DNA from: an archaeon
Lineage (GTDB): Archaea; Iainarchaeota; Iainarchaeia; Iainarchaeales; 1-14-0-10-31-34
DNA: 64,000 nt
Assembly: GCA_043815885.1 (NCBI GenBank)
Contig: JBDRIL010000029.1
Location: 3,249 to 67,248, forward strand
Direction: 5' to 3'
A program made the translations under genes and the position numbers. Below, piece after piece: positions 6,107 to 61,973 of this stretch. The first letter of the stretch is position 1, and every line of letters starts with the position of its first letter. The notes beneath the pieces were generated by a model, which was given only the letters and a program-made list of their open reading frames with translations, was not told the DNA's origin and ran no database searches.

Positions 6107-9100
6107 TCACTGCACTACCTTGCCTGTAATTGCATCAATTCTCGCTTTTCTTTCCTTTCCATTTTCTTCCAGTGAAACGTAATAGAACGGCCTGTAAACC
6201 AGACTCACTTTTTTCACTATCACTGTCTTCCACATTTTCTGGAGAGACTTAATTACTTTTTCTTCAGAGAAATTAGCTTCGACTATTGAGACATTCTTTA
6301 ATTCAACCAAAGGCAATTCATTCAATGAATCAATCAATGAATGCCTTGAGTCAGGAGGAAGTTCTATCTCTCTGTTAAGGAAATAGGAGACCTTTCCCTC
6401 AGAACTAACTCTATCAACCAAACCCTTTTCAGTTAAATTGCCTAGAACTTTTTTTATTCTTGTTTCAGAGTAATTCTCTTCCTCCAGTTTTTCCTCCATT
6501 CCTTTCCTTTTAATTAAGCCAGCAAATACCTCTAACTGCTCTTCATCCAATTCCATTACCTTATTGAAGCCTCTTGATTCAATGAATTCATCATTCTTTA
6601 CGTGAATGAATTCCCCTGTAATGGCATTAATGAAACACGTAGTTGCAATGAATTCCTTGCTTTTGTTGAAGTCATTGAATGAAATCTTATAGACTGGCTC
6701 AAAAATAAGTTGAAGTTGCTTTACCTGCTCTTCCTTTCCAACCAACCCAAACCTTTTCCTTTTCCTTACCTTATTAACGATTTTCTTTGCTTCCTCTTCC
6801 TTTAATCTTAATGGAAATGAAAGAATGCTTTCCCTCTCTACCTTCTTTTCTTCCTGCTCTTTTATTCTTTCCTCTGCTTTTTCCTGTGCTTCCTTTATTA
6901 CTTCCTCTTTTTCCTTTAATTTTTCTGCAAGAACGACTCTGTCTGGTTCAATTACTGCCTTTCTTTCCTCCAATAAATCCAGTACAGAGGAAAGCATTGC
7001 CTTTGCCTTGTACTTGCTGTTCAATGAATTAATCAATTGATTGATTTTATCCATTCCTATTTCTCCATCCCTTCCTAATTCCCTGAACGCAATTTCCATT
7101 GCAAGGTTTTCCACCTGTTCCTTGCTCAGGCTTTTAACCAAAGAAATGGTTTCTGCATCCCTTCCCTCGTGCTGCGACATTCTTGGGCGGATACTCATCA
7201 CAAACGCTCTGCTTGTTTCCTCTCTCCTGTCACCAGTGAGAGCATAACCTATTGGAAGGCTTCTAATGAAATTGCTTTTCTTGTATTGGTGGGGAATGAT
7301 TGTAGGAATTCTCTTGTAAATAGCCTTTATGTCGTCATCAAAAACCAGTTTATGAGTCAAAAGAATATCCAATTGAGACAACACCCTTGTATCAATTGCT
7401 GATGGCTGCTGTGTAGCAAAAACTATACTGCAACCAGGCCTTCTTCCCTGCTTAACATACTCCACCAACGCATTTGTGGCAGGAGTATTTACATTTCCTG
7501 AAGGAATTAAGGTGTGGGCTTCATCAATAAACATCCAGGTAGGAGGAATATCTGTTTCAAGCAATGCATTCATTGAAGTAGCCTTCATTTTATTCGCTGA
7601 TTCTCTTCTAGTGGAAAGCTTTCTCGCTGAAAGAATTCTCCTTGCAAGAATTCCAATAACCAATGCAGTAACATTTGCTTCAAGAAAACTTGTATCCAAT
7701 ACAGTCAACTGGTTTTCTCTGGAGAGTTCCCCCAAAGGAGTTCCCTTTTCATCAAAGATCCCCCAGGACTTCGCTGCCTCAAACCTGCTGACTAACGCCC
7801 TAATGGAATCCTGTTTGTAGCCTCTTTCCCTGCTATTCAATTCTTCATCTGTCTCCAGACAGTTTATCATGCCATCCAGAGAAAAACCCTGCTTGTTTGC
7901 CTTAACGTATTTTCCTTCAATTGTCTTGTATCCATGCTCTACTTTTTTAATTACCTTATCCAAAAGCAAGCCGCTTGGACCAAATCTCTCCATTCCAAAA
8001 GTCAAACACCAGTCCTCTGAGGTAAGCAGTGAAGGCTGAATTGAAAAGGTTGCATCATAAGTGTTTTTTGGAGTTTCATTCTTCATTCCTGCTGGAATGA
8101 ATACCTTAAGGTTATCAAGGCCTTGAGGTTCTAACCCCCACTCAATCAATGCACTTAATTCCTTTTCTTCCTTGTTTGCATACTTCATGCTCCAGAACAC
8201 TCCAATAGGATCAATTACTACTATTCCAACATTGCTGTTTTTCAGTGCCAGTTCCTCTGCAATCACTCCAAGAACGTATGAATTATGAACAATTATATCG
8301 TTTGCAACAAAATTATAGTATTCTGGAACAGAAATATCATATACATCTTCTCCAGGAATTTCTTTTAACTCAGTTACCTCATCCCAAAAAATATCTGATT
8401 CTGCTATCATCTGTACTCCTTTATTCCCTTCAATCTGAGCCATTCTCAGTAACTTTTTTCTGGAAGGCGCGTAAGTTAAGGAACTATGGACGTAGTTTGG
8501 ATTATAACCCATTGCTCTCGAAGCAGCCTTACAATTTTTTGGTCTATAAATGCCCCAGATTTCTTTCGGAATAGTGTCTACATTTGGATTTCTTGAAACC
8601 TCAAGCATGTCTTTTATTGCATTTTCCTGTTTTAGTTCTTTTACCCCAAAAAAACCGATTTCCTGAATGAATCTGATTACACTTTCAGATGAAATAACTA
8701 ATTCAAAGGAATTGAATTTTTTCTCGTTACATTTGACTTTTTTGAACCTAAGCCTAGAGAGTATCCCAAATCTAATCAAAAGATTCTGCACTTGCCTTAT
8801 CATTTTATCTGAAGAACTAGAATAAGAAACCTGCCAATTATTTTTTCTTCTACTTATCGGATGAATACTGCCGTCACAACTGAAAAGCCTGTTCAGGAAT
8901 AATGCCAGCTGTTCTTTAGGAAGTTTTAATACTTCTTCTGGAATAACTTTCTCCTTTGTTAGCTTTCCATATAATCCAATGCTTTCAAACCATTTTGCCA
9001 GAGAACTCTTTTGCGCGACAATAAACCCTTTGCTTGTAAATTGCCCTTTTTTGTTTCTAACAACATTTGTTAAATCAATTGGTTTCTTTTTTTGTGCAAC

Positions 9101-14083: not shown

Positions 14084-14326
14084 TCCATTAATAAAACTCT
14101 CTTCATATTAATAAATTTAACTCAAAAAAATATTCAATTTAGTTTAATTCGATTATGTAGCTTAACAAAAAACTATTTAAAACGATTACCACAACAATAG
14201 TTGTGGTATTGGGAGTTAAAGGAGGCAAGTCATACTGCTTTTGCGAAAGAATTCTTTTTCAACAGTCTTTAGATTAAAGACTGTGCAGTTCCCTGGCTTG
14301 CCTTCATCATAATTACTATTTCTTTA

Positions 14327-14379: not shown

Positions 14380-14525
14380 TAAAAAAAATTAGTTTTTATT
14401 TCTTTAATTTCCTTACTGCCCCCCTATTGACATCCACTTTTATAAATATTATCCCGTTGTAATAGGAGGGAGGATTCTATAACATTTTAATATCGTTTTC
14501 CCCTACAATAAATACTGCACTGAAA

Positions 14526-14720
14526 GCAGGGATGGCGGAGCGGTTTAACGCACCAGCCTTGAGCTGCCCCTTCTTTTCTTTTTCTAAAAGAAAAGAAGCG
14601 GTAAGTTGCCGGAAGAAAAGAAAAAATTAATTGCCCAAAAAGAAAGAAAGGATGGCTTCTTTAATTGCACAAGCGAGCTGGCGTCCGAAAGGACTCGGGA
14701 GTTCGAATCTCCCTCCCTGC
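14526..14720 (+). tRNA. tRNA-Ser (anticodon UGA), class II, with a 111-nt intron at canonical position 37/38 (14564-14674)
   Basis: Acceptor GCAGGGA/TCCCTGC, 3-bp D-stem GCG/CGC, anticodon stem CCAGC/GCTGG split by the intron, loop CTTGAG|A, long variable arm CGTCCGAAAGGACTC, T-arm GGGAG-TTCGAAT-CTCCC, discriminator G. Confidence 0.8.
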
Positions 14721-14846
14721 GTATCAGAACCTAGCGGTTCCGATACCTCCCTTACGGAAGGATATCTTTTCCTTTTCGCCAGCCTTTCAGAAAAAGGCTG
14801 TCAGATAGCTTCTTTAAAAAAGGCTTTGCATAAAAAAGTGATAGAA

Positions 14847-15302
14847 ATGAAGGAAAATGAATCGGATTTAATTGAAGAGGCAAGGGAAGCGTTAAAGAAT
14901 TCTTATTCGCCTTATTCCAAAACCAAAGTAGGAGCAGCAGTGCTTACCTCCAAAGGAAATATTTATCGAGGCTGTAATGTCGAGAGCAGCAGTTATTGGC
15001 CGAATCTATGTGCAGAGAGAGTAGCAATAGCGAATGCTGTATCCAATGGAGAGAAAAAAATCAAGACAATAGCAATTGCATCAAGCAGGGAAGGATATAT
15101 CACTCCTTGCGGTGGATGCAGGCAGGTAATATATGAATTCTCTGTGATTGCCGGCAGACCAATAAAAGTAATTCTTTCAAACAAGAAAGGTGACACAAAG
15201 GAATTATCAATAGAAGAATTGTTTCCATACCCATTCATTCCAAAGAAATTAAGCAAAAAAATGCTGGAGAAGAAAGAATTAAGTGAAATTGAATGGGTTT
15301 AA
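14847..15302 (+). CDS. cdd: cytidine deaminase
   Basis: Zinc ligand motifs CAERVA and PCGGCRQ. The track ORF 14631-15302 has an N-terminal extension that overlaps the tRNA exon; the real start is taken as the internal ATG at 14847 (MKENESD). Confidence 0.8.
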   Translation: MKENESDLIEEAREALKNSYSPYSKTKVGAAVLTSKGNIYRGCNVESSSYWPNLCAERVAIANAVSNGEKKIKTIAIASSREGYITPCGGCRQVIYEFSVIAGRPIKVILSNKKGDTKELSIEELFPYPFIPKKLSKKMLEKKELSEIEWV

Positions 15303-15832
15303 TTGAATTCTTTCACAAAGTAAAGAAGCTAAGGGAATTGAAGAGAAAGGGATGGAAGGATTTTGGAGTGGAAAATCCTGAGAGTGTTGCAGACCATTCC
15401 TTTAGAGTAGCTTTAATGACACTGATTTTTTCTGAAAAAATGAAACTGAATACTGAGAAGGCATTAAAGATGGCCTTGATTCACGATTTGTGTGAAGTGT
15501 ATTCAGGGGATTTAGCAGCAGAGGAAAAAATAAGCCGGGAAAAATATGAATCAGAGGAAAAAGGAATGAAAAAAATTGTTTCTGAATTGAATGAGCGAGA
15601 GGGAGAAGAATTAATGGATTTATGGAAGGAATTCATGGAAGGAAAAAGCAGGGAAGCAAGGATTGTGAGGGAAATTGACAGGCTTGAAATGGGTTTCAGC
15701 GCAGTGGAATACGAAAAAGAACAGAAGAAAGGAAAGGAATTCGTTAATACATTTATTCCTTTCGTGGAAAAAAGTTTAAAGGAAAAGGAATTAACTGAAT
15801 TATTCAATGAATTAAAGAAAGAATTAAAGTGA
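15293..15832 (+). CDS. HD-domain phosphohydrolase (YfbR-like 5'-deoxynucleotidase family)
   Basis: H...HD...D metal-binding motifs (HSFRVALMTLIF, IHDLCEVYSGD). Confidence 0.75.
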   Translation: MGLIEFFHKVKKLRELKRKGWKDFGVENPESVADHSFRVALMTLIFSEKMKLNTEKALKMALIHDLCEVYSGDLAAEEKISREKYESEEKGMKKIVSELNEREGEELMDLWKEFMEGKSREARIVREIDRLEMGFSAVEYEKEQKKGKEFVNTFIPFVEKSLKEKELTELFNELKKELK

Positions 15833-15839
15833 AATAAGA

Positions 15840-16334
15840 ATGAGAAAGAAAGTAATATTTGTTGCGGGCTCAGCAAAGAATATTTCAAAGAAAGTATATG
15901 AAATGGCAGAGGAAGTGGGAAGAGAGATTGCAAGAAATAACTGTATATTGATTTGTGGAGGTTTAAGCGGGGTAATGGAAGCAGTATCAAAAGGATGCAG
16001 GGAAGAAGGAGGATTGAGTATTGGAGTGATTCCTTCGGCAGAAAAAAGCGATGCCAATCATTTTGTGGATGTAGTGATTGCAACAGGAATCGGATTTGGA
16101 AGGAATTTTATTTTAGCACAATCAGCAGATGCAATGATTGTTGTAGCGGGGCAGATAGGGACACTCATAGAGAGTTCTGCAGGATATTACTGGAAAAAGC
16201 CAATAATTGCATTAAAGGGAAGCGGGGGAACAGCAGAAAGGATTGCAGGAACCTATCTGGATGAAAACAAGAGAATAAAGATTCTTTCAGCTAAAACGCC
16301 AAAAGAAGCAGTAAAACTGGCATTAAAAAAATAA
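15840..16334 (+). CDS. LOG-family / TIGR00725 Rossmann-fold nucleotide-binding protein
   Basis: ICGGLSGVMEAV and KGSGGTAERI (PGGxGTxxE-like) motifs. Confidence 0.65.
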   Translation: MRKKVIFVAGSAKNISKKVYEMAEEVGREIARNNCILICGGLSGVMEAVSKGCREEGGLSIGVIPSAEKSDANHFVDVVIATGIGFGRNFILAQSADAMIVVAGQIGTLIESSAGYYWKKPIIALKGSGGTAERIAGTYLDENKRIKILSAKTPKEAVKLALKK

Positions 16335-16375
16335 AAGAGTAACTATAAAAAATCTAATTAACCAAGATATTTCAG

Positions 16376-16516
16376 GCAGGGATGGCGGAGCGGTTTAACG
16401 CACCAGCTTGGAGCCGAACCCTTTTTTCTTTCCCGAAAGAAAAAGGGATAATTATTATTGTTTGACAAATAGCTGGCGTCCGAAAGGACTCGGGAGTTCG
16501 AATCTCCCTCCCTGCG
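16376..16516 (+). tRNA. tRNA-Ser (anticodon GGA), class II, with a 57-nt intron at 37/38 (16414-16470)
   Basis: 5' half and T/acceptor arms identical to the 14526 copy. The anticodon loop is TTGGAG|A instead of CTTGAG|A. Confidence 0.8.
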
Positions 16517-16640
16517 TATCAGAAAAACTACGTTTTTCCGATACCTTTTCCTTTTCGCCAGCCTTTTAGAAAAAGGCTGTCCGATACCCCCCTTACGGAG
16601 GATGCCTTCCTTAAAAAGCAGGCGCGCAAAAAAGTGAGAA
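16517..16640. repeat. duplicated tRNA-Ser 3' flank (hairpin CGCCAGCCTTTYAGAAAAAGGCTG, YCCGATACC, CCCTTACGGARGGAT modules), copy 2
   Basis: The same modules occur at 14721-14846 after the first tRNA-Ser, in rearranged order. Both copies end in AAAAAAGTGAnA(R)AAATGA and then a gene start. Confidence 0.7.
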
Positions 16641-17134
16641 AAATGAGTGAATTGAAGATTAATAGTTTGAAGATAGAGAACCCTGAAACAAACGAAATAA
16701 TTATCGGGCAAGGAAACTTTACAGTGAAAACAATTGAGGACTTTTATAATGCATTGGTTAGCGCTGCCCCGGAAATAGAGTTTGGAGTGGGAATGAATGA
16801 AGCAAAGCCAAAGCTGACAAGAGTGAATGGAAACAATAAAGAATTAATTCAGAGAGCAGGAGAAACCTGCAAGAAGATTGCAGCAGGGCATGTATTCGTT
16901 ATTTACTTCAAAAAAGCTTTTCCGATTCACGTATTGAATGCAGTTAAAGCACTTCCAACAGTTTGCTGCATTTACTGCGCTACATCCAATGAACTGGAAT
17001 TAATAATGGCAGAAACAGGGCTAGGGAAAAGTGTAATAGGGGTAGTTGATGGAACAGCAGCAGAAAAAATAGAGAACGAGGAAGAAAAAAAGCATAGAAT
17101 TGAATTATTGAAGAAGCTGGGTTTCAGGAAATGA
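16634..17134 (+). CDS. conserved hypothetical protein (possibly adenosine-specific-kinase-like family)
   Basis: 166 aa, no low complexity. The family assignment is from memory only. Confidence 0.3.
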   Translation: MRKMSELKINSLKIENPETNEIIIGQGNFTVKTIEDFYNALVSAAPEIEFGVGMNEAKPKLTRVNGNNKELIQRAGETCKKIAAGHVFVIYFKKAFPIHVLNAVKALPTVCCIYCATSNELELIMAETGLGKSVIGVVDGTAAEKIENEEEKKHRIELLKKLGFRK

Positions 17135-17141
17135 ATTCAAT

Positions 17142-17310
17142 GCGGCTATGGTCTAGTGGCAGGATTCAAGCTTCCCAACAACCGCAAATCGGTTGACGCT
17201 TAAAGCGTCAAGGGATTTCGCTTTGCTTCAATCCCTTATTAGGTTTTACATAAACTTTAAATGCGGTGGAGGAATAGCTTGCGACCCGGGTTCAAATCCC
17301 GGTAGCCGCA
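17142..17310 (+). tRNA. tRNA-Gly (anticodon CCC) with a 98-nt intron at 37/38 (17178-17275); an alternative Trp(CCA) reading is less likely
   Basis: Acceptor GCGGCTA/TAGCCGC (C2:G71, G3:C70), U8, D-arm GTCT-AGTGGCA-GGAT, anticodon stem CAAGC/GCTTG split by the intron, loop TTCCCA|A, T-arm CCGGG-TTCAAAT-CCCGG, discriminator A. The intron contains a 9-bp perfect hairpin TTGACGCTT/AAGCGTCAA. Confidence 0.65.
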
Positions 17311-17369
17311 TTAGATCAGGATACGTTTATATATTTTTGTATATATACATATTTATACAAGTGATTTAA

Positions 17370-60851: not shown

Positions 60852-61973
60852 TTATTGATTTAAGCTTTTCTCTAATAGGCTTAACCACTTATTTCTTTCA
60901 AGCTTTAAATCAATCCCTGCTTTCTCTGAAGGCGTCATTCCGATTGTTGAATTTCTTTTAATGAAGTTATGGTATAATCTGTGTCCGTTAGCCCATTCTT
61001 GTGTTGTCTTGTTTGACTTGAATCCTCTTCGCACTTTATCGAATTCCCTGAATTCATTATGATACCTTTCTACAAGATTGTTGTTTATTAAGTGCCTTCT
61101 TCCAACAATACTGATATGCTTTGTTCTCTTTGACTTGGTTCTGAATTCTCTCTTGATTGCTTTTGGATAGCTTCCAAGAGAATCAGTAATAATGAATTTA
61201 GGTTCTTCTGCTTTAGGATTGTTTTCTTTTACTTCAATGAAATGCTCTTGAGCATCCTTAATTTTTCTTCCTTCTGTGATTGTTGAAGCTAAGACAAATC
61301 TTGTTTTATGGTCTATTGAATTCCAAGCATAAACCCATTTTCCTTTGGATTTAACTAATTGTTCATCAGTATGAATTTGTCCGCTTAATTCAGGAGTGAA
61401 TTTCTTAGTGTATTCATCCATTTTTGCAGTGAACTTATTAATCCATCTTCGGATTGTATCAAAATGAATTCTGATGTTATAGAATTGGTAAACAGTATCA
61501 GAAATATCTCTCAATGATAAGCCTTTGAAGTATAAATCCATTGTTAAAGTAATGATTTTTGGGTTTGCTTTAACTCTTTTCAATGGCTCTAAAACAAATA
61601 GTTTTTTACAGGCTCTGCATTGCCATCTTTGTTTTATTCCTGCACTTGTCTTTCTTTTCCCGTATTTAACTATTAGGTCTGAATAACAGTGAGGGCATTC
61701 CTGTTTATTTGCATTGAATTCTTCCTCTATATTGAAGTCATCTAATTCTGCCTTGTTTTTCATTTTTAAGTAAAATTTGATTGAGTGAATGTGTTTGCAT
61801 TCAGTTTTCCTGTATTTGAAGTCAGGGCATTCACAACTCCATAGGTTAGCGTTCTGCACTTTATATTTTCCATTTCCAGATTGAGAAGGAATAATCCATT
61901 CATTCTCATTAACCATTAAAGGAGTATCGCCTTTAGACAAAATCGCTAAACCCCTAATTTCTCTTTCATTCAT
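60852..61973 (-). CDS. IS6-family-like DDE transposase with N-terminal SWIM-type zinc finger
   Basis: CECPDFKYRKTECKHIHS (CxCxnCxH) zinc finger. DDE region resembles IS6/IS26 (WVYAWNSIDHKTRF..., FIITDSLGSYPKAI, RRHLINNNLVERYHNEFRE, NGHRLYHNFIKRNSTIG). Confidence 0.75.
   Translation of the reverse strand: MNEREIRGLAILSKGDTPLMVNENEWIIPSQSGNGKYKVQNANLWSCECPDFKYRKTECKHIHSIKFYLKMKNKAELDDFNIEEEFNANKQECPHCYSDLIVKYGKRKTSAGIKQRWQCRACKKLFVLEPLKRVKANPKIITLTMDLYFKGLSLRDISDTVYQFYNIRIHFDTIRRWINKFTAKMDEYTKKFTPELSGQIHTDEQLVKSKGKWVYAWNSIDHKTRFVLASTITEGRKIKDAQEHFIEVKENNPKAEEPKFIITDSLGSYPKAIKREFRTKSKRTKHISIVGRRHLINNNLVERYHNEFREFDKVRRGFKSNKTTQEWANGHRLYHNFIKRNSTIGMTPSEKAGIDLKLERNKWLSLLEKSLNQ

Follow-up and report, generated by a model that had tools for sequence, protein, structure and literature searches.

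The gain and exchange of tRNA introns in archaea is an open question, and to our knowledge intron "transposition" has been inferred only from the similarity of introns in Thermoproteales. Here we describe short palindromic modules that recur in the introns, leaders and trailers of archaeal tRNA genes, beginning with a stretch of 64,000 nucleotides (hereafter the window) from an archaeon of the lineage Iainarchaeales (assembly GCA_043815885.1, contig JBDRIL010000029.1, positions 3,249 to 67,248, forward strand). Two linked tRNA-Ser genes of the window, tRNA-Ser(UGA) and tRNA-Ser(GGA), are each followed by a 3′ flank of about 125 nt that is assembled from common modules. These arrays belong to a family of mosaic palindromic modules in low-GC DPANN archaea, which public records label as Micrarchaeota or Diapherotrites. 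In the reading that we favor, with reservations given below, the modules would be mobile or recombining DNA that is tolerated where RNA processing discards it.

Two kinds of described element come closest, transposed tRNA introns and repeats of the REP/MITE type, and each fits in part and fails in a defining feature. Work on Thermoproteales, as summarized in two papers, describes near-identical intron sequences across tRNA genes of differing identity, implying recent movement between tRNA genes that is presumed to take place at the DNA level by a mechanism that is not known (PMC4090602, PMC4033280). The modules likewise give similar introns in non-orthologous genes, since the unit H1-HB (defined below) lies in introns of a tRNA-Gly, a tRNA-Glu and a tRNA-Ile gene (L007, L018 and L008; compared loci are given L numbers). 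In contrast to those introns, copies here are also found in leaders, in trailers and after a protein gene, and they stand in both orientations rather than in the single one of bulge-helix-bulge (BHB) introns. Moreover, they form tandem arrays, occur in genomes of very different GC content and in a DPANN lineage, and enter existing canonical introns without creating new intron positions.

Repetitive extragenic palindromic (REP) sequences, the bacterial interspersed mosaic elements (BIMEs) built from them and MITEs (miniature inverted-repeat transposable elements) resemble the modules in being short imperfect palindromes (20–45 nt) that are mosaic, extragenic, often arrayed and variable between strains, and that break short-read assemblies. 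Indeed, imperfect palindromes of 20–40 nt lie outside genes in mosaic arrays here, and the arms of H1 (ATCAGAA/TTCCGAT) form inverted repeats as in MITEs, with 13 strong copies according to a covariance model (R1) in 205 kb of compared sequence. Unlike these repeats, the modules are strongly tied to the borders and introns of tRNA genes. The arrays of L012 and L015 are direct tandems rather than of alternating orientation, and no gene resembling a REP-associated tyrosine transposase (RAYT, IS200/IS605-like) was found among the open reading frames scanned, a scan that was not exhaustive. The inspected junctions gave no consistent direct repeat of the kind left by target-site duplication, the sole case being a CTGATA microhomology at L008.

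Canonical archaeal BHB introns offer a further comparison. The introns of the two tRNA-Ser genes and the module-bearing ones of L007, L018 and L008 are all placed at position 37/38 or adjacent to it, with a BHB or its relaxed form; their content, however, is not private to them, being made of modules common to the flanks of other tRNA genes. Archaeal tRNA genes are also integration sites of viruses and plasmids and may be split or permuted (PMC3293823, PMC3218864). The likeness here is that tRNA genes serve as hot spots for foreign DNA and that a tRNA fragment has been duplicated (the 3′ fragment of tRNA-Leu after an H2 palindrome at L022), whereas the loci of the window lack an integrase, a kilobase-scale element and an att duplication, and their tRNA genes are whole and undivided. 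Full-text literature searches returned no description of the same modules across introns, leaders and trailers, nor of anything similar in DPANN archaea.

Modules of the two tRNA-Ser flanks

Both flanks open with GTATCAGAA, immediately 3′ of the discriminator base. They then share a block of 56 nt with 88% identity, comprising a T-tract and the hairpin CAGCCTTTYAGAAAAAGGCTG, the block TCCGATACCYCCCTTACGGA with 19 of 20 positions identical, and a block of 39 nt with 72% identity that reaches the ATG of the downstream gene. An earlier sequence-only reading of the window had described the flanks as built from the same modules and as running into a similar start region of the downstream gene. Both statements are borne out, as similarity stays far above the dinucleotide-shuffle background (0.00–0.01 expected matches for the long modules), and RNA folding, a check proposed there, gives the hairpins H1 and HB and the palindrome H2. 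H1 is the hairpin that abuts the tRNA, UAUC-A-GAAcc..ggUUC-C-GAUA; H2 is CAGCCUUU..AAAGGCUG after the T-tract TTTTCCTTTT; and unit A is TCCGATACC. The hairpins are kept through compensatory changes in the H1 variants and in H2. The apex of H1 differs in sequence between the flanks with its pairing retained (GAACC/GGUUC against GAAAAAC/GUUUUUC, types H1a and H1b), and the H2 family alignment (A3) has 95% paired cells and three pairs altered on both sides, a result reached by 0 of 500 shuffles.

The order of the modules is H1-HB-T-H2-A′ in flank 1, behind tRNA-Ser(UGA), with A′ decayed, and H1-T-H2-A-HB in flank 2, behind tRNA-Ser(GGA). It had been taken for a rearrangement. Pairwise alignment of the flanks, however, holds just two gaps, each between short direct repeats (GATACCT/GATATCT and CCTTA/CCTTA), which points to a single H1-HB-T-H2-A-HB parent reduced by two slippage-type deletions. 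Such a parent array is found intact at L018, where it forms a canonical 106-nt intron of tRNA-Glu(CUC), and most of it adjoins tRNA-Pro(UGG) at L012. These two loci share their source metagenome with L003, a strain nearly identical to that of the window, and their tetranucleotide usage, by which kinship was judged, matches the window as well as the window matches itself (r ~0.975), so that the L018 contig appears to come from the same or a sister population.

The module family across tRNA genes and genomes

Further copies, for which the earlier reading had proposed a genome search, were found at many tRNA genes by a pattern scan of public genomes and metagenomes, followed by BLAST and the covariance model on fetched loci. 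Three lie within introns. In tRNA-Gly(CCC) of L007, H1-HB stands in sense orientation with 31 of 32 positions identical to flank 1; the L018 array is likewise in sense; and tRNA-Ile(GAU) of L008 carries H1-HB in antisense, in a host genome of 51% GC with a tetranucleotide correlation to the window of r=0.42. Antisense copies lie directly 5′ of tRNA-Ser(UGA) at L011, of tRNA-Pro(UGG) at L012, where they form an array, and of tRNA-Ser(GGA) at L015, where a tandem array contains H1a and H1b, both variants of the window flanks. A sense copy is located 66 nt 3′ of tRNA-Leu(GAG) at L011, and another module of L011 has no tRNA beside it and follows right after the stop codon of a protein gene, where orientation does not apply. 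In all tRNA-linked cases, H1 has its ATCAGAA end turned toward the tRNA exon, 1–2 nt off the junction. Near-identical copies of H1a occur at L007, L008, L011, L012, L015 and L018, and a stretch of 24 nt in the H1b of flank 2 matches the H1b units of the L015 array at 100% identity.

Two of the strong R1 copies are those of the 64-kb window, and all are within tRNA genes or no more than ~150 nt away save the L011 copy behind the stop codon; the model found no strong copy in L004, L005, L019, L020 or L022. Five of eleven pattern matches (L009, L010, L013, L014 and L017) have coding DNA or unrelated composition and are probably due to chance. Exchange between introns and flanks runs in the opposite direction as well. 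Over its first 60 nt, the tRNA-Ser(UGA) intron of the window (module I) shows 93% identity to a 3′ trailer, that of an intron-less tRNA-Ser(CGA) at L007, and relatives of module I are found in trailers of Pro and Ser tRNA genes at L012 and L015 and in introns at L011, L015 and L019, the introns being those of Ser and Pro genes. In the more distant L019, L020 and L022, five tRNA genes have an H2-type palindrome 1–4 nt upstream, and L022 has further ones in antisense in the tRNA-Arg(UCU) intron, after tRNA-Leu and between two protein genes. The modules seem to gather almost only in those parts of tRNA genes that are removed at maturation, namely leaders, trailers and introns. The sequence-only reading had offered, as an alternative, a tRNA-linked element reused at two loci; reuse holds, and at many tRNA genes, while a tie to tRNA-Ser, to the trailer or to the downstream gene does not, as the leaders, introns and trailers concerned belong to Gly, Glu, Ile, Pro, Leu and Ser genes.

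Searches of virus, phage and plasmid collections with H1-HB, module I, the 56-nt palindrome described below and a whole flank gave no match. One H2-type palindrome, TTTTTGATCAACCTTTTTTTCAAAAAGGTTG, is present on a viral contig of 33.8 kb and 32% GC (L024 5918–5948, IMGVR_UViG_3300048041_000145), just upstream of the Shine-Dalgarno sequence and ATG of a gene and with no adjoining tRNA.

Two observations were made beside these copies. At L022 8636–8790, an H2 palindrome comes after tRNA-Leu(GAG), and behind the palindrome stands a second copy of the last ~24 nt of the tRNA (GGGCAGTTTGAATCCTCCACTCTGCA), which could be a duplication or insertion scar or an unusual gene structure. A module termed L (AGTACTAC..GTAGTAC..GGCGTCAACTGACGGAACGGTT) occurs at L015 7342–7395 and 8691–8722, inverted at L015 ~8170–8230, and at L011 ~7120–7160; it lies directly 5′ of two tRNA-Pro genes and inverted in other tRNA flanks.

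Insertion, loss and turnover of modules

The clearest view of module movement comes from the sister genomes L005 and L007, whose syntenic DNA is 82–93% identical. Between their orthologous tRNA-Gly(CCC) genes the exons hardly differ and the intron has its 3′ part in common, and L007 holds an additional 27 nt, consisting of H1 plus ACCTCC. These 27 nt stand in an otherwise conserved intron, and the two genes make up a filled and an empty site, which shows insertion into a pre-existing intron. The intron of this gene measures 25 nt in L005, 52 nt in L007 including the H1 insertion, 96 nt in L004 and 98 nt in the window (gene at ~17142–17311), where it consists of three hairpins. The 96–98 nt introns of the window and L004 are unrelated to those of L005 and L007 and occupy the same position; the site is fixed, and what the intron contains turns over rapidly.

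Nearly identical strains differ as well. A 56-nt palindrome with perfect 13-nt arms, GTGACAAATCAGTT...AACTGATTTGTCA, lies inside the apical loop of the flank-1 H1 in L001 (3968–4026) and in L003/L016, at the site corresponding to window 14733/14738, where the window and L002 have no insert; no further copy was found in the compared sequence or viral contigs. At L019, a run of nine T directly follows tRNA-Ser(UGA), at the place where the window has H1-HB ahead of its T-tract. Modules are thus gained and lost between close relatives. Three independent assemblies stop within the second A-HB unit, at window position 16607, and L004 begins 49 nt before the PF04008 gene that follows flank 2, as is to be expected of short-read assemblies that meet multi-copy repeats.

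Mode of spread and competing explanations

These findings are consistent with modules that behave like MITE or REP elements, moving or recombining as DNA. Copies would enter at the foot of a tRNA gene or inside the loop of an intron or hairpin that was already there, and would be tolerated as sequence that RNase P, RNase Z and the splicing endonuclease remove. We infer DNA-level spread because inverted copies are hard to obtain by reverse splicing. In the window, the array lies between the 3′ end of each tRNA-Ser gene and what is, in a relative, a plain putative oligo-T terminator. Concerted evolution of the linked tRNA-Ser genes probably helped the flanks to converge, and slippage deletions between the direct repeats GATAyCT and CCTTA would later have produced their differing module orders. 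On balance we consider this account of mobile or recombining DNA somewhat more probable than its negation.

A serious rival, chiefly for H2, is that the modules are functional RNA or DNA signals under selection, such as processing determinants, bidirectional terminators, insulators or promoter elements, and are reused because they work. Such signals would explain the palindromes kept by compensatory change, the T-tract behind H1/HB in trailers, the stance of H2 just upstream of five tRNA genes and of the gene on the viral contig, and the ~97–100% conservation of H1-HB between genomes of 36% and 51% GC. The same module, however, is found in sense and in antisense to the tRNA and at all three kinds of site (leader, trailer and intron), and therefore no single RNA-level role fits; arrays with T-tracts lie inside introns, where a terminator would do harm; close relatives lack the modules at orthologous sites (L005 compared with L007, and L019); and no Rfam family was matched. 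As the general explanation of the family, we rate selection for such signals as unlikely.

Several points also weigh against the mobile-DNA reading. The sample is small, at about 10 independent loci. No transposase, recombinase or target-site duplication was found tied to the modules, and the units within arrays are direct, whereas those of classical BIMEs alternate. That the modules are tied almost exclusively to tRNA genes, together with the rule for the ATCAGAA end, could point to function or specific targeting rather than passive tolerance, and the fixed spacing of H2 in L019, L020 and L022 looks like a transcription signal. A purely selfish element also leaves the resemblance to 16S rRNA (see below) out of its reach. 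Finally, metagenome assemblies break at repeats, and some of the arrays may be mis-assembled.

The only transposase of the window is of IS6/IS240 type with a DDE domain (60852–61973, minus strand; PF13610, E=9.6e-20), within a stretch at 60–64 kb whose GC content, 30%, is below that of the remaining window and which probably represents an island or insertion sequence. We rejected a connection of H1 with this transposase (60.8–62.0 kb), as there are no related inverted repeats.

With a module family that can be traced across introns, leaders and trailers, DNA-level and RNA-level movement become testable against each other, because there are orientation flips, tandem arrays, indels between strains, a filled and empty pair and a copy in a genome of distant GC content. 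The family also suggests that some introns grow through colonization of sequence that is discarded anyway. In practice, the repeats break short-read assemblies at tRNA loci, and they make standard tRNA finders miss or mis-call tRNA genes of DPANN genomes.

Resemblance to the 3′ end of 16S rRNA

H1-HB of flank 1 (window 14723–14754) aligns to the last 26 nt of the 16S rRNA of E. coli rrsH (L023 88–113), GAACCTGCGGTTGGATCACCTCCTTA-3′, with 24–25 identities and three 1-nt gaps, a score reached by 0–5 of 2000 shuffles. The match covers the 3′ strand of helix 45 together with the anti-Shine-Dalgarno tail. The resemblance is taken as a lead only, because it was noticed after the fact and the target was E. 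coli rather than this lineage's own 16S rRNA.

The same two limits bear on the idea that H1-HB is a working mimic, or antisense complement, of the 16S 3′ terminus, which would be freed by tRNA processing and act on ribosome biogenesis or translation. Besides the alignment itself, HB pairs a CCUCC segment with a GGAGG-like segment, as such a mimic might; set against this, both orientations of the module occur and hence no single RNA species would arise, and the module folds differently from helix 45. We consider a working mimic improbable.

A broader proposal, which we put forward as a doubtful possibility, is that DPANN tRNA introns have been enlarged, and perhaps founded, by DNA insertion of horizontally spreading palindromic modules that settle at the 5′ and 3′ foot of tRNA genes as well, and that H1-HB, the commonest module, as a copy of the 16S 3′ terminus, hints at an origin from the end of an rRNA gene or at a processed RNA acting on the ribosome. 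If true, the inverted copies and the L005/L007 pair would be the first cases caught in the act, arguing against RNA-level reverse splicing.

The tRNA-Ser genes and their introns

The window has a GC content of ~36% and tRNA genes with long introns, on account of which a default ARAGORN run and Rfam at gathering threshold detected tRNA-Ala(CGC) alone. Three further intron-bearing genes appeared when ARAGORN was allowed introns, at 14526–14721, 16376–16516 and ~17141–17311. The first was labeled Ala(tgc) because the intron had been put inside the anticodon; read with a canonical BHB (CUUG/CAAG as central helix, with AG|C and CG|A as bulges) it is tRNA-Ser(UGA) with a long variable arm. The second, tRNA-Ser(GGA), scores 43 bits with the Rfam tRNA model and has a relaxed BHB (UUGG/ACAA). 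Both introns lie at position 37/38 with splice sites in 3-nt bulges around a 4-bp helix, the archaeal BHB arrangement, and their removal leaves mature tRNAs of 84 nt. The sequence-only reading was right in recognizing two intron-containing tRNA-Ser genes and in giving 57 nt for the intron of tRNA-Ser(GGA) (Table 1), and one nucleotide short for that of tRNA-Ser(UGA), for which it gave 111 nt. Its statement that the 5′ halves and the T and acceptor arms are identical applies to the 3′ exons, which agree at 46 of 46 positions, and not fully to the 5′ exons, which have mismatches at positions 32 and 34 only.

The two introns have a 5′ hairpin in common, with 83% identity over 70 nt. At L019 the same pair is present (7311–7492 and 8634–8798), and both within the window and within L019 its two genes are identical outside the anticodon loop, while ~8 positions differ between the tRNA-Ser genes of the two genomes. 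The linked pair thus evolves in concert in each. Such likeness of exons and of intron hairpins, together with flanks that are 72–88% identical, is also what plain local duplication of one tRNA-Ser gene with its intron and 3′ flank, followed by a change of anticodon and neutral decay, would leave behind. Duplication as the complete explanation is nevertheless contradicted, since the same modules also turn up in other genomes and at tRNA genes for Gly, Glu, Ile, Pro and Leu, and L019 has the same pair with unrelated, plain trailers. In addition, H1a and H1b are distinct variants within the family, not in-place mutations of each other, because both occur in L015. Very improbable on its own, duplication or gene conversion survives as one step within the spread of mobile or recombining modules.

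The 3′ part of the tRNA-Ser(UGA) intron (GATGGCTTCTTTAA) has a 14-nt likeness to the flanks that by itself is within chance expectation; the flanks may share ancestry with this 3′ part of module I. The T-tract present in both flanks, which corresponds in place to the plain T run of L019, probably ends the tRNA-Ser transcripts. The TATA-like boxes 25–30 nt before the ATGs (Table 1) probably drive the cdd-HD-SLOG genes and the PF04008 gene with very short leaders. A scan for sigma-70 promoters and intrinsic terminators is of little meaning for archaeal DNA.

Other identities for the flanks were tried and rejected. For a C/D-box or H/ACA guide RNA there is neither a C box (RUGAUGA) nor an ACA on either strand, and Rfam gave no match. 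For trailer removal by the splicing endonuclease no BHB spans the discriminator, and the leader-trailer pairings of 3–4 bp compete with H1. A known cis-regulatory RNA or riboswitch for nucleotide salvage has no curated family match, and the modules lie beside unrelated downstream genes and inside introns as well. Compared with Rfam 15, the flanks gave nothing at gathering score, the sole match over a flank having 18 bits (E=0.4).

Table 1. Predicted features of the window around the two tRNA-Ser genes (positions of the window).
Feature	Coordinates	Strand	Description and basis
tRNA-Ser(UGA)	14526–14721	+	exons 14526–14563, 14676–14721; intron 14564–14675 (112 nt, module I)
H1 hairpin, H1a type	14722–14747	+	abuts discriminator; UAUC-A-GAACC-uagc-GGUUC-C-GAUA, then CC; R1 54.3 bits
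HB hairpin	14746–14766	+	CCUCCC-UUAC-GGAAGG, then AUAUC; folding
T-tract TTTTCCTTTT, CGC, H2 palindrome CAGCCTTT-CAGAA-AAAGGCTG	14767–14800 (H2 14780–14800)	+	flank alignment, H2 family alignment
Decayed second A/HB copy (TCAGATAGCTTCTTTA), TATA-like TTTAAAAAA (14813–14821), GTGAT before cdd ATG	14801–14846	+	alignments
Cytidine deaminase (cdd)	14847–15302	+	Pfam PF00383, E=5.7e-19
HD_3 / YfbR-like hydrolase	15293–15832	+	Pfam PF13023, E=1.5e-40
SLOG cluster-4 protein (TIGR00725, LOG-like)	15840–16334	+	Pfam PF18306, E=2.3e-41; conserved neighbor of tRNA-Ser(GGA)
tRNA-Ser(GGA)	16376–16516	+	exons 16376–16413, 16471–16516; intron 16414–16470 (57 nt, shortened module I)
H1 hairpin, H1b type	16517–16545	+	UAUC-A-GAAAAAC-uac-GUUUUUC-C-GAUA, then CC; no HB after; R1 30.1 bits
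T-tract TTTTCCTTTT, CGC, H2 palindrome CAGCCTTTT-AGA-AAAAGGCTG	16546–16579 (H2 16559–16579)	+	flank and H2 alignments
Second A (TCCGATACC), HB (CCCCCCTTACGGAGG), TATA-like CTTAAAAAG (16610–16618), GTGAG before ATG	16580–16642	+	alignments
PF04008 "adenosine-specific kinase"	16643–17134	+	next to tRNA-Gly(CCC); orthologues in L004, L005, L007

Upstream of tRNA-Ser(UGA), a non-coding element is conserved between the window (~14204–14305) and L019 (7184–7245), with TGGTATTGGGAGTTAAAGGAGGCAAGTCATACTGC 91% identical. Two compensatory changes leave the pairing of a long stem, GGAGGCAAGUCA/UGGCUUGCCUUC, intact, and the apex in the window has additional hairpins. The element has no match in Rfam and is a candidate small structured RNA.

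The gene block between the tRNA-Ser genes

Pfam confirms that the block enclosed by the tRNA-Ser genes encodes, as first read, a cytidine deaminase, an HD hydrolase and a LOG-family protein (SLOG). The region up to 16607 is reproduced in three other assemblies of nearly identical strains. L019 has the frame of the window, running from ribulose-phosphate epimerase through a gene of 538 aa on the opposite strand to tRNA-Ser(UGA), ~500 nt, SLOG and tRNA-Ser(GGA), and at this position tblastn found neither cdd nor HD, there is no H1 or HB, and the trailers are plain. At L020/L021 and at L022, SLOG is followed by an intron-less tRNA-Ser(GGA), and in L022 tRNA-Ser(UGA) lies 5 kb upstream. Because the order tRNA-Ser(UGA), SLOG, tRNA-Ser(GGA) recurs in relatives, the bracket is an old, ancestral gene order in which cdd-HD alone varies, and the flank modules are a later, lineage-specific addition to it. 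The PF04008 gene has other upstream neighbors in L005 and L007, and its protein, used as the query against species-representative genomes, gave no match.

The same comparison, which the sequence-only reading had suggested making in relatives, bears on its proposal of a segment captured between direct repeats. In that scenario, cdd-HD-SLOG would be a mobile cassette integrated or captured through tRNA-linked direct repeats acting as att-like sites, and two similar units of tRNA plus flank in direct orientation do enclose the 1.5-kb three-gene block, of which cdd and HD are lacking in L019. The third gene, however, is kept next to tRNA-Ser(GGA) in L019, L020 and L022, and L019 has both tRNA genes around SLOG without any modules. 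Moreover, tRNA-derived att repeats are duplicated 3′ parts of one tRNA, whereas the repeats here are two complete and different tRNA genes; no integrase was found at the locus among the window proteins scanned with Pfam, nor is there a recombinase nearby, and the virus, phage and plasmid collections gave no matches. Capture of a cassette is thus extremely improbable, and the nucleotide-salvage "cassette" is, soberingly for the original claim, an ordinary and partly conserved gene order.

A separate observation concerns the intron-less tRNA-Ser(GGA) at L020, whose 3′ end is directly followed by at least 2.5 tandem copies of a ~49-nt repeat, AAACCCTTTCCAAAGGGTTTAACTAAATGTACGGGATAAACCCGTACTGC (8690–8800).

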